This document shows positions 32,509 through 37,805 of a stretch of DNA of 64,000 bases, piece by piece. Origin of the DNA: Eledone cirrhosa. Its lineage: Eukaryota. Both the position numbers and the translations under genes were made by a program. The stretch covers positions 106,268,001 through 106,332,000 of the forward strand of contig OZ024743.1 of NCBI GenBank assembly GCA_964016885.1. The letters run 5' to 3'. The stretch's first letter is position 1, and every line of letters begins with the position of its first letter. A model generated the notes under the pieces. It worked only from the letters and a program-made list of their open reading frames with translations. It did no database searches and was not told the DNA's origin.

Positions 32509-32644
32509 ATATTGTTATACTTTGGGTGGGTCATGTTGCCAATAAGGTCTTATTGGCAACATGACCCTCCCAAAGTATAACAATATCGGTTTCAACACAC
32601 GATTTCAGATAAAGAATCTTGCTAAACAAAATTCAGAAACGAAA
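32509..32644. repeat. Short fold-back copy (about 37-bp arms) of the 35843-36470 element
   Basis: ATTGTTATACTTTGGG..AATAAG-GT-CTTATT..GTATAACAAT plus the same 3' tail; in (TA)n. Confidence 0.9.
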
Positions 32645-33089
32645 TATATATATATATATATATATATATATATATATATATATATATATATATATATATA
32701 TATATATATATATATATACTTGTGTGTGTGTTAGTGTTGCACTTGTGTACGGATGTATACATGTATGTATTCATGCATGCAAATATTATATATGATGTTT
32801 TCATAATATTATATCTCTATCCAAGGTGAATAAATTAATTAGAGAAAAGGTACGGTATCCACATCAACTGGAAATGAATACACAATCACTGCCTACAACA
32901 ATTTCAAATGACCATAACAACAGCAACACCAATAGTTAAAATATTTTTAGAAATGTTTGCATCAAACATGAAAATACAATACATTCTAATACAAAATAAG
33001 AAACTAATAATCAAAATAACAAGCTATAGCACCAATATCATTGTTGCCACCATTACCCTTCTCCAATATGCAGTGACGTGAACAAGGGT

Positions 33090-34960
33090 GAATCAAAGTG
33101 TTCTTGTGGAAATAGAAGACAAACGCGATGTGTGTAACCCTTCACCACTTCAACGGTATCTTCCTATGTGCCATTTCAAGGCCACTCTGTTTCTTACCAC
33201 GTCCTTTGTCCATCTGGAATTCGAATGCAAACGAGACCCCGAGCAACTTCACCGACTTTACCAGGTTGCCTAACACCTCGAATTCGGTTATGTTCGCCAC
33301 CATCATAGTGATGATGCAGTCCTTCCACGTTCCGGTTCGAGTGGGATTCTCTGCAATCACCCCAGCTTCCGAAGCCAATGTTCGTGTGTCAGTACGTACA
33401 GAAGGGAGATGAGAAAACATCCTTGGCAGACTGAGTGTGTGATCTGGAAAAGTTCAGATTAAGGGCCATATAATTTGTTCCCGAATCAGTTGATACTGGG
33501 TCACTGTAATCAGTGACCCAGTATCTAAAGACGGAGCCGAGGCTGGTTGACATGAATATAGCATCCAGGTATAGATGGCTGACCGTATTGGAAGCTTTAA
33601 ATTGATACACATAAATTAGAGCCCCACCAAACCTAGTTTAACACCATCCTTTCTCTATGATGTATCGCATATGGTGGAGGTTTTCATCATTTACCTGCTC
33701 GGGTCTACACCTGTCTGCGAATCACTTGCTAGGTATTCCATGACAAGCGGAGTTTGTTGCTGTTGTTTATGTTGGTGGTAGTTCAGTAGCTGCTGTTGGT
33801 AAATTGATGGTGTTGGTCCTTTCGTATTTGCTGCTGCTGCTACTGGTTTTGTTGATGTTGTTTATGTCGGCGGTATTGCTACTTCCGCTGTTGTTTTTAG
33901 ATTTTTCTTTGAAATTGACATTGCTGCCGGGTTTGGTGCCATCATTGATGTTGCAATTTTTTGGCTACTGGTGTTGGCAGAAAGGGGTTTGGTTCCCTGG
34001 CTTGTGTGATGGTCGGAAATCACCCAAGTGACCACCTTGCCCAAACTGATGACAAACGAAACGTCTGCTCTCAACTAAATCATGCAAGAACACTTCTCTT
34101 GTAATGTTCGGTTCAACTCTAGGAGAGTGTTGCTTCCTTCGACGAAGATGCAGGGATATATCAACCAGATGTTAATTTCTAGTGGATTTCGGAAATGTTC
34201 ACCCTCACTGCTGTACTTCCATGATAGGGGGGATACAATATATGTTTCTCGTTCGGGATAGTAAACTACGGTGTGTTTCACGACCAGAGATTCACCCTTA
34301 AAAAGCACTAAAATGCTCGTAAATCCGCCTTGAAAAGGCGATATGTTATTCGCCGAGCATTATTTCTTTCGGTGATATATCCTTCTCTGCCTGATTTGTT
34401 TCCTCCGGCCGTTTCCTTTCTGTAGAAACACATGTGTACCTGACTATCTATTTCTGTGTTTCTGCCACTGCCTTGTGTAGGTGGTTACGCCGGCCCAATG
34501 TTTTTCCATTTTATCTGCGTTGTCCGTGCAAAAGTGTTCGGTACTTTTGGCAGCTGCTGTTGTTCTAATTTTTATACTGTTTTTGCTCATGTTGTTGTTG
34601 TTATGTAGGTATTGCTAGTGTTTTTGATGTCGTCTGTGTTTGTGTTAAATCTATTGATTTTTTTTCAGTTGTTGAAATGGGATTGGTTGTGGTGGTGTTG
34701 TTTGTGGTGTTTTGTTTGGCTATGCTCTCTGTCATTGTGGTGGGGGCAGCAGCGTTCACAGCTAGTGATATTGGAAAACGTTGAAATACTATTCCATTAT
34801 TCACCTTCTGCATAAAATATTAAGTTTTTGTTGCTGTTGTTGTTATTGTTCCTATTACTGCTGGTACTGGAGCTGTTTTGCTTGTTGCTCTTGCTGCTGT
34901 TGTCATGTTTGTCAGACTGTTTGTCTGTTTTACTCTCTGGATAGCCACCCATTCTGCTTA
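33090..34960 (-). pseudogene. Decayed intronless coding remnant: CUB-like domains alternating with Thr-rich linkers
   Basis: FCTY/TLASEAGVIAENP..WKDCIITMMVA resembles a CUB N-terminus; Thr-rich runs such as TTNNTTTTNPISTT; many stops and frameshifts. Confidence 0.45.
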
Positions 34961-35392
34961 GCTTACGCAACATTTTTGTCTGCCGCAATGAATTCAACAG
35001 TTTGTGGGTCATTTTTAATAAAGAAACACATGTTTATCTCCGAAGGGCTACATATAGAGCTAAGCTAACCAGCTCTCAGAAGTACTGGTTACTTTAACTA
35101 CAAAAGAGTAACAAAAGAGAGATTTATGAAGTTGTGACGAGACACGAAGCAAAATTAAAATTAATATAATCACTATTACAGAAAGTATCACAACACACAC
35201 ATACTTATATATATATATATATATATATATATATATATATATATATATATATATATATATATATGTATATATATATATATATATATATAAATATATATAT
35301 ATATATATATAAATATATATATATATATATATATATATATATATATATATATATATATATATATATATATATATATATATATATATATATAT

Positions 35393-35670
35393 ATAAGGAA
35401 AAGAGATGACATCGAAAATGCAAATGGAGTCTTTTTTTTTTAATTATATTTACTTGATTCCTTTACCGGTTTTTTTTTTGAGATGGAGGGTTTGTGGTTT
35501 TTCTCGCATCTCGCAGATGCGAAATGGTAAGGGAACCAAATAAATATTTAAAAATAAAATGACTCCAGTTGTATTTTCGATTTCATATTTCATCTTTTCC
35601 CTTATACATTCACTCGTGTAGGACACCTCGTTTTTTTTCATCTTGTAAAAAAGACTTCACTTTCTAACAT
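35393..35670. repeat. Fold-back copy of the 45656-45845 HHR family (core deleted)
   Basis: 35393-35468 inverted vs 35525-35605; shares tail TTCACTCGTGTAGGACA...CACTTT with 45785-45845. Confidence 0.7.
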
Positions 35671-36017
35671 ATATATATATATATATATATATATATATAT
35701 ATATATATATATATATATATATATATATATGCATGTACATATATATATATATATATATATATACATATATGCATGTACATATATATATATATATATATAT
35801 ATATATATATATATATACGTACAAGCATATGTATATATATACATATTGTTATACTTTGGGAGGGTCATGTTGCCAATAAGAAACACACGTACCAGTTGCT
35901 TTCACTTCAATGTATTATATATTTATAAATTCATAAATTTACAAATCTACAAACTTATAAATTATAAATTTCTGGTTGGTTGGTTGGTTCCACAACCAGA
36001 TAGTTGTTTATATATAT

Positions 36018-36062
36018 AGTCATAGTCCTTTCGTCACACACTCTGTGACCTCTTCAGTGACT
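36018..36062 (-). ncRNA. Minimal type I hammerhead ribozyme
   Basis: AGTCA-CTGAAGA-G-GTCAC-AGAGTGT-GTGAC-GAAA-GGAC-TA-TGACT. Confidence 0.8.
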
Positions 36063-36193
36063 GGGGATTCCTTTCTTCGTTTCTGTGCCTTTTCTTTCTT
36101 CTATCCTACGCCATTTTGTTTCTGACACACACAGAAACAAAATGGCGTAGGATAGAAGAAAGAAAAGGCACAGAAACGAAGAAAGGAATCCCC

Positions 36194-36238
36194 AGTCACT
36201 GAGGCGGTCACAGAGTGTGTGACGAAAGGACTATGACT
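36194..36238 (+). ncRNA. Hammerhead copy with mutated core (CTGAGGC)
   Basis: Mirror copy of 36018-36062 with A9 changed to C. Confidence 0.65.
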
Positions 36239-37805
36239 ATATATATAAACAACTATCTGGTTGTGGAACCAACCAACCAACCAGAAATTTATAATTTATA
36301 AGTTTGTAGATTTGTAAATTTATGAATTTATAAATATATAATAAATTGAAGTGAAAACAAATGGTGCGTGTGTTTCTTATTGGCAACATGACCCTCCCAA
36401 AGTATAACAATATCGGTTTCAACACACGATTTCAGATAAAGAATCTTGCTAAACAAATTCAGAAACGAAATATATATATACATATGTATATATATATATA
36501 TATACATATATATATATATATATATATATATATATATATATATATACACACATATATTTGTGTATACATATGCATATATATATTTACATATATATATGCG
36601 TGAATGTATATATCTATGTATATATATATATATATCTATGTATATATATATATATATATATATATATATATATATATATATATATATATATATATATATA
36701 TATATATATATATATATATATATATATATATATATATATATATACATATATACATATTTACATGACAATGAAGTGAGTTTATTAGAATGTCCAAGTGCGC
36801 TTCTACAATATGAGAATGTAACAGCTGCAATACTGGTAGCAATTATATATTATTTATTTCTCTTTTATCGTTCCCCAATTTATTTTCAGCTCAAATTAAA
36901 CTTTTAGAAAAATTCTTAATATATATATATACATGTAAAAGAAAAATCAAACATGTCAAAAGTTTTACACATCCACGCAGACTCAATTGCAAAATACAAA
37001 CGCTTTCATAACTGGTGTATGTATGTATGTATGTATGTATTTGTTTATATATGTATGAATGTATGTAATTATGTATTTATTTATATATGCTTGTATGTAT
37101 ATTCTTAAATGTATATATATATATATGTGTGTGTGTATATATATATATATATATATATATATATATATATATATATATATATATATATATATATATGTAT
37201 GTACATATGTATATATATATATATATATATATATATATATATATATATATATATATATATGTATATATATATGTATATATGTATATATATATATGTATAT
37301 ATATATATGTATATATATATATATATATATATATATATATATATATATATATATATATGCATTTCCAATAAAAAAAATGTATAAATATATTTACGTAAAA
37401 GATGAATGCATATACATGTGTATAGATATATATAGTGACGGTTATTTATAGAATTCAGCAGATAGGACATACCATTTAGGTCTCATGTTCAAATATAATT
37501 TCCTCCATGGTATTTAAAATACTACTCCATTTTCGTAATTACATGATTTTATATATATATATATATATATATAAACGGAAAAAGGTGAAACGAAATTTCA
37601 TTTCTCACTCTTAGTACGGCTGTTACTTATATTTAAGTAACAGCCGTACTAAGAGTGAGAAATGAAATTTCGTTTCATTTTTTCCCTTTAACGTTTTCGG
37701 TATTCCCATTAACTCATTCGATATGCAAATTAGGCTGCTCAGCCGTTAATATGCATAAGGAAATTATATAGTCTCAGACGTTCAATCATCTGTCAGGAAG
37801 GTATG

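Follow-up and report, generated by a model that had tools for sequence, protein, structure and literature searches.

Fold-back insertions, in which two inverted arms meet at a central turning point, raise the question of which element produced them and of how copies with the same ends can come to have arms of very different length. Two such insertions occur in a stretch of Eledone cirrhosa DNA of 64,000 nt (assembly GCA_964016885.1, contig OZ024743.1, positions 106,268,001-106,332,000 of the forward strand), hereafter the window, to which all coordinates refer. A first-pass annotation had described them as paired fold-backs with the same outer ends and arms of 37 and 282 bp, an observation that is borne out (arms of 37–38 and 282 nt), and had ascribed them to priming at two fixed sites on the RNA. 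The analysis described here indicates that each locus is very probably a separate 5'-truncated insertion of one canonical family (i.e., with a C-terminal endonuclease) of Penelope-like elements (PLEs). An account in four steps, in which the PLE inserts in (TA)n by priming twice on a single RNA, whose 5' end stops both cDNAs, is given a probability of about 0.6. Both copies are devoid of coding capacity.

Organization of the two fold-back copies

Both copies are arranged head to head in (TA)n, starting as (TA)n-ATTGTTATAC and finishing as CAGAAACGAAA-(TA)n. The long copy consists of an inverted arm lacking the tail (35843..36124, minus strand), a turning point of 7 nt (36125..36131, plus strand) of which at least 36128-36131 are family sequence of the direct arm, the direct arm itself (36132..36413, plus strand), which finishes at the inner fixed end 36413, and a tail of 57 nt (36414..36470, plus strand); its arms, each of 282 nt, are 98% complementary with six mismatches. 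The short copy lies between a pure TA target tract on the left (32467..32508) and a (TA)n tract on the right (32645..32718). It comprises an inverted tail-less arm equivalent to 36376-36413, whose outer end is the inner fixed site (32509..32546, minus strand), a turning point of 2 nt (GT, 32547..32548), a direct arm with a putative start codon at 32561 (32549..32586, plus strand; 37 of 38 positions paired) and a tail of 58 nt with one additional A (32587..32644, plus strand). Each copy extends past its inverted repeat on one side only, and 32548-32646 matches 36375-36472 at 99% with a single gap of 1 nt.

Once microsatellites had been masked, a self-comparison of the window linked the two loci through the element only; the flanks, whose possible homology the first-pass annotation had wished to see checked, are unrelated. 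A 701-bp self-match of 100% was discarded, being the overlap of the two ranges compared and no real repeat.

The family in sequencing reads

Four of eight sequencing runs were aligned to 36125-36472, namely X1, which may be the window's own sample, X6, X7 and X4, the last from another organism. Family matches amounted to 8146 contigs in X1, 119,965 reads in X6, 109,581 reads in X7 and 6810 contigs in X4, depth ratios not being taken as copy numbers; the sequence pattern of the 3' end was found in none of the metagenome contigs and none of the viral contigs. In all four runs the depth drops across 36413 (e.g., from 5804 to 3256 minus-mates in X7 and from 1.12M to 0.66M in X4), and behind this position (TA)n loose ends occur in 116 contigs of X1, 2573 reads of X7 and 155 contigs of X4, so that the inner end is fixed family-wide; among the 24 of 1166 loose ends listed, X6 shows no (TA)n end at 36413. 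The outer end, 36470, is common to both window copies, and 5 of the 16 contig pieces listed reach 36471-36472. The fixed outer ends claimed from the two copies are sustained by the family reads at 36413 and by a second PLE family of the window, four copies of which end at one base.

Other read ends were rejected as element ends. Each of those at 36289, 36320, 36344 and 36459 coincides with AATT, and CATGC opens the loose end that precedes 36128; we take these motifs to be enzyme sites of the restriction-site associated DNA (RAD) library and the ends to be restriction cuts.

Upstream of 36128 the family sequence runs on in reads, so that the long copy, too, lacks 5' sequence present in the genomic element, and depth rises toward the 3' end, as expected of many short truncated copies. 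Both long arms carry A36163 and G36324, where about 98–99% of the family has G and A; arms sharing alleles present in at most about 2% of family reads do not fit independent stops on unrelated transcripts. At the turning point of the short copy, the T matches the template at 36375, and the G suggests either a non-templated base or a minor family allele, T>G at 36374 being found at <1% in X6 and X7 and at about 12% in X4. The reads also contain a family joint, 36381/36436, with an overlap of 4 nt, which on our reading of the table suggests arms without overlap. In addition, tail-to-tail family joints at 36413/36413 were seen in 7 and 38 reads.

Among the family joints listed (15 of 107) none corresponds to the turning point of the long copy at 36125-36132, nor was that of the short copy confirmed in reads, so that the palindromes of both loci rest on the assembly. 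This is what would be seen if they were fold-back artefacts of assembly or library preparation. Such an origin is nevertheless very unlikely, considering that of the six mismatches between the long arms the left arm has the family allele at four and the right arm at one, that the asymmetry of the unit coincides with the family-wide end at 36413 and the unit is framed by a probable target duplication (see below), and that the same layout recurs in several other families of the window.

Probable Penelope-like identity

The assignment to PLEs draws on a probable sister family in the window (22613..25111, minus strand), recognized by motifs and pairwise comparison, as were the other PLE frames. 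It includes a broken reverse transcriptase (RT) frame, a CX4CX2C linker and a GIY-YIG endonuclease frame followed by a 3' end that contains a hammerhead-like motif (22836) and stops in (TA)n 12 nt after an ATG. This 3' end is colinear with an arm of the long copy: in both, the same short motifs are found together with a TA run, a hammerhead-like core and an ATG that closely precedes (TA)n, and their likeness at the DNA level was reached by none of 1000 shuffles. The high-scoring tiles 10871-11200 and 51626-51955 were rejected as low-complexity matches. At E<=0.001 the sister RT finds 1685 relatives, and it aligns over three segments with P0005, a full-length protein; 21 loci were retrieved with an alignment of 13 proteins of this kind, and the order RT, CX4CX2C, GIY-YIG is the same in the sister and in the relatives P0001, P0005 and P0156. 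Pfam matched 5 of 183 frames in the window, one of them above the curated cut-off and none inside either fold-back copy. A related 3' end is also present, as an old and diverged copy, at 38920..39130 (plus strand). Another PLE relative, L002:480-2410, contains long repeat inserts coding for Ala, Thr, Asn and Ser in its open reading frame (ORF) region, which bring to mind the asparagine-rich inserts already described (PMC3846280).

By comparison with L005 and other relatives, 36388..36468 (plus strand) represents the putative first 27 codons of a PLE ORF (MTLPKY...FNTR...), cut by the inner end 26 nt and by the outer end 83 nt after the start of the ATG at 36388; an in-frame ATG at 36361 was rejected as start because it is private to the right arm, the family having C. 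Full-length relatives of the sister RT (P0005, P0156, L005 and L009) open with a similar motif, and out of 20000 shuffles the score of the frame against their N-termini was reached by 13 for L005, 131 for L009 and 314 for P0005. That the one-sided extension is the start of a PLE ORF, like that of relatives encoding RT and GIY-YIG, thus has moderate support from sequence comparison. Relatives also end in (TA)n shortly after an ATG (about 21 nt in L001 and L004, about 72 nt in L009), and L005 has a complete ORF, a hammerhead and then an ORF restart that continues through the equivalent of the far-site sequence. Since they lie 26 and 83 nt into the putative ORF, both fixed sites are most likely internal to the RNA, and the far site, originally taken for the terminus of the RNA, probably is not its end.

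Several observations weigh against this identification. The ORF start matches modestly: with a profile built from the four relatives the two copies come 1st and 3rd among 2597 window segments, at E of 0.09 and 0.31, P0156 is not significant by itself (2427 of 20000 shuffles), an initial comparison restricted to P0005 gave a weak result (418 of 20000 shuffles, BLASTP E 0.10) and the motif pattern was composed after P0005 and P0156 had been seen. A protein search with the 40-residue ORF-start frame gave two candidates, none at E<=1, which is weak evidence. The DNA likeness of the sister is modest as well, ranking 5th of 751 window tiles, and the RT or endonuclease of the exact family was not seen, its ORF being known from 27 codons.

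Long inverted repeats and TA flanks are also features of non-autonomous DNA transposons of the foldback or miniature inverted-repeat transposable element (MITE) type with a TA target. This identity is hardly to be expected here: the right terminus is the 57-nt tail, so that the two ends, which differ by this one-sided extension, are not inverted repeats of each other as such elements require, while the hammerhead, the ORF-start fragment, the depth biased to the 3' end and the RT-bearing sister point to a retroelement.

Comparison with known elements

Complex insertions of canonical endonuclease-bearing (EN+) PLEs likewise show a head-to-head inverted copy with a palindromic junction and a tail on one end (PMC8557442, PMC3846280), the inverted copy being 5'-truncated and the tail 30–40 bp long (PMC8557442). 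They also share AT-rich or microsatellite targets and, if the probable duplication of the long copy is real, target duplications near 10 bp. A further likely resemblance is the location of the first ORF codons in the pseudo-long terminal repeat (pseudo-LTR) and tail, which in Adineta Pen2a hold the first 12 and, with the tail, 22 codons (PMC3846280), as against about 9 and 27 putative codons here. The two copies differ from them in consisting of two inverted ends without an ORF body, and in a tail of 57 nt.

Within PLEs, the CxxC motif in the linker of the sister indicates a clade different from that of Anolis carolinensis Poseidon (PAc). The CX4CX2C of the sister and its relatives resembles the CX2-5CxxC linker upstream of the C-terminal GIY-YIG in Neptune and Nematis PLEs (PMC8557442), and the family may perhaps belong on the Neptune or Nematis side, as judged from the sister, the family's own ORF being known for 27 codons. 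Membership in the Naiad clade, characterized by an N-terminal endonuclease and no canonical hammerhead, was rejected in view of the hammerhead present and the C-terminal GIY-YIG of the sister. The copies resemble non-LTR retrozymes (bioRxiv 10.64898/2026.07.22.740005) in being non-coding, hammerhead-bearing and PLE-related; this identity was rejected because the units of retrozymes are tandem and direct whereas those described here are inverted, the short copy having no hammerhead.

Hammerhead motifs

According to the first-pass annotation each arm of the long copy contains an outward-facing hammerhead ribozyme. A descriptor of minimal hammerheads does match both arms in this orientation, at 36057 (minus strand) and 36199 (plus strand), and one further locus of the window at 38243, with no locus in any of 30 shuffles of the window; the core, however, is intact only in the left arm. 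The predicted minimal type I motif in this arm (36018..36062, minus strand) includes a helix I of 5 bp, the core CUGAAGA plus one extra nt (between positions 9 and 10.1), a helix II of 6 bp, GAAA, a helix III that is short and vestigial, and a UA cleavage site. The right-arm motif (36194..36238, plus strand) has the core CUGAGGC, with private changes at 36203 and 36205 (A9>C), the C at core position 9 being tolerated by the descriptor. Both positions are A in at least 97% of family reads, as in the left arm, and the right-arm hammerhead is probably inactive. Rfam gave no hits at gathering thresholds, and the isolated motifs fold no better than shuffles (z of -0.7 and -0.4).

Metazoan PLE hammerheads are of the minimal type I and thought to be active only as dimers (PMC4209133). 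The motifs described here are similar to them in the lengths of helices I and II (5 and 6 bp), the extra nt between 9 and 10.1, the G10.1-C11.1 pair and the vestigial helix III, and dissimilar in a loop III, GA or AA, that is only quasi-palindromic and in the mutated core of the right arm. The hammerhead would be regarded as a passenger of the pseudo-LTR, and its cleavage activity would depend on a partner copy. Family reads at 36241 also reveal a sister subfamily whose hammerhead has a UU cleavage site and a variant loop III (6854 reads in X6).

Target site

The long copy is directly abutted on both sides by a 15-mer with a single C interruption, a probable target-site duplication (35832..35846 on the left, the last four bases of which, ATAT, also belong to the element, and 36471..36485 on the right, both plus strand) that corresponds to 11–15 bp of probable target duplication. 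The same 15-mer opens 2 of 149 other TA-tract edges. If real, the duplication makes the long copy one primary insertion at staggered nicks; around the short copy it would be unreadable, since the flanks are pure TA.

These data bear on the possibility that the short copy was once a longer palindrome, derived from the long copy by local duplication or else inserted independently, and lost its center by cruciform deletion. Long palindromes are prone to deletion, and the copies lie 3.3 kb apart and are 99% identical over 96 nt. This origin is unlikely: the flanks are not homologous, the long copy has its own probable duplication, and depth climbs toward the 3' end as it would with many short truncated copies. 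Moreover, at the variable places listed for this stretch the allele in both copies is the one most frequent in the family, so that their identity is expected. A central deletion in an independent insertion could still have produced the short copy.

A proposed integration mechanism

In the preferred account, namely two primings on one RNA, the GIY-YIG endonuclease would first nick both strands of (TA)n about 11–15 bp apart, as the probable duplication suggests, providing two 3' ends. The RT would then prime at two internal RNA sites within the ORF start, at 36413 from one strand of the target, with which the four bases ATAT could pair, and at 36470 from the other, the 57 nt between the two sites giving the tail. 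Both cDNAs would be copied from a single RNA molecule and halt almost together at its 5' end, which may have been a broken end in the short copy and possibly the transcription start in the long copy. Finally, a template jump or end joining would connect the 3' ends of the two cDNAs in head-to-head orientation, the remainder being filled in by repair.

Synthesis from two RNA sites into both sides of the target, as suggested by the first-pass annotation, is backed by in vitro work on the anole element PAc, in which AT-rich DNA is cut and extended on both strands, synthesis starting at two internal sites of the RNA between which the tail lies, and a dimer is predicted (PMC11167929). The RT start sites of PAc lie beyond the hammerhead and within the beginning of the ORF, as is proposed here; they differ in that they are not homologous to the target, whereas up to 4 nt of pairing are possible at the inner site here. 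Of the two TA-like priming sites proposed earlier, only the inner one (ATAT, 36410-36413) is shown, the family sequence covered reaching to 36470.

That the two arms can arise as independent cDNAs in this genome is shown by two other elements of the window with asymmetric junctions. In the family at 61172-63870, which has RT and GIY-YIG frames, an inverted tail-less arm of 290 nt is joined to the middle of the RT frame and ends 80 nt upstream of the outer end shared by four copies (the others ending at 26862, 44956 and 56684). At 27208-28921 an inverted pair with arms of about 285–290 nt has one arm joined to an unrelated position of the longer arm; hammerhead-like cores occur at 27294 (minus strand) and 28736 (plus strand), and a decayed endonuclease-like C-terminus lies ahead of the right arm, beyond which the element continues for about 95 extra nt. 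The view that cDNAs join wherever synthesis stops fits these two elements but misfits both fold-back copies: the arms of the long copy stop within 7 nt of each other and those of the short copy within 1–2 nt, and such near-symmetric turning points, together with the shared rare alleles, are not explained by joining at independent stops.

One RNA might be copied by two RT subunits at the same time, starting from the two fixed sites, until both leave its 5' end, in which case the long copy would be the complete double strong-stop product; this refinement is possible but tentative. The turning point 36125-36132 sits between an upstream motif, present in the family reads' loose end and in the sister, and a downstream motif at 36139..36146 (plus strand), also present in the sister element, which we take to be NRF1-like and YY1-like, respectively. 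In human promoters NRF1-type sites are found upstream and YY1-type sites just downstream of the transcription start (PMC11269187). The YY1-like motif may possibly mark a position just downstream of a transcription start, and the identification of the long-copy turning point with such a start is speculation.

A different origin of the same PLE insertions would be a single cDNA that, initiated at the tail end, snaps back and copies itself, the intermediate being resolved by the endonuclease at the AT-rich inner site; it corresponds to the self-priming view of Arkhipova and colleagues. This accounts for the near-symmetric turning points, the shared rare alleles and the longer tail arm at the head in both copies. 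In addition, head-to-head palindromes at the inverted junction have been taken as self-priming (PMC3846280) and tails as endonuclease resolution (PMC8557442), and one fold-back of the window, at 37574-37688, has its turning point at a natural hairpin of 6 bp in its unit. No natural hairpin was found at either turning point of the two copies, however, in the family letters upstream of 36375 or in the one loose-end consensus upstream of 36128, and the 2-nt loop of the short copy cannot prime. Snapping back cannot yield the asymmetric junctions of the families at 61172-63870 and 27208-28921 either, and extension of the two strands in vitro begins at two sites on the RNA (PMC11167929). On balance this route is the main rival, though a less probable one.

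Some points count against two primings on one RNA. The tail arm is longer at the head in both copies, as snap-back predicts, and the shared rare alleles could derive from a minor source gene or from later conversion between arms. The outer end 36470 rests on two copies, as the reference stopped at 36472 and RAD reads were cut at AATT (36456-36459). The tail, of 57 nt, is longer than the 30–40 bp usually quoted, and the probable duplication is set in a degenerate microsatellite, its 15-mer being found 27 times when both strands are counted.

Other elements of the window

The window is unusually dense in PLEs. Broken frames of PLE-type RT or GIY-YIG from several families occur at 5441-6385, 8956-9806, 11482-13331, 18270-19320, 25283-25870 and 57459-58542, and tiny pieces of the outer end of the 61172 family lie in both orientations between TA runs at 26841-26960. 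Further fold-back or inverted structures, several of them bounded by (TA)n, are found at 6252-7178, 43572-43800, 50777-51332, 53952-55057, 56387-56464 and 59457-59813; the one at 43572-43800 caps a PLE-like remnant of RT and endonuclease (41639-43591).

At 37574-38496 two tandem units of 431 nt in (TA)n, each with a minimal hammerhead (37811 and 38243), form a retrozyme-like element. Its left inverted arm of 58 nt covers only the stretch just past the right-hand end of the unit and turns at the natural hairpin of 6 bp. This neighbor fits a retrozyme better than the two fold-back copies do.

A dispersed repeat of about 190 nt, which may resemble a short interspersed element (SINE)-type repeat of octopus genomes, is present in about ten copies (4551-4927, 9225-9352, 26984-27168, 31814-32168, 46078-46267, 47643-47769, 48525-49049 and 59457-59813), one pair of which forms the fold-back at 59457-59813.

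Significance

The structure of the two copies is ordinary for PLEs, as an inverted copy plus tail has already been published. The mechanism put forward in the first-pass annotation is largely right and corresponds to this published pattern; as a whole it is partly supported. The making of the inverted arm and of the junction is described as open (PMC8557442, PMC3846280), and PMC11167929 settles initiation only, the joining of cDNAs not being addressed in its parts consulted. The terms "Penelope-like" and "twin priming" were found together in no title or abstract, in a search mostly outside subscription papers.

Palindromes in (TA)n such as these may be misassembled or misfiled as MITEs. Their value is that of test material, since a very high-copy family and neighbors with both symmetric and asymmetric junctions could separate the models. 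If twin priming on one RNA is true, a family so rich in copies would let genomes decide between this route and self-priming at the open step of PLE integration.

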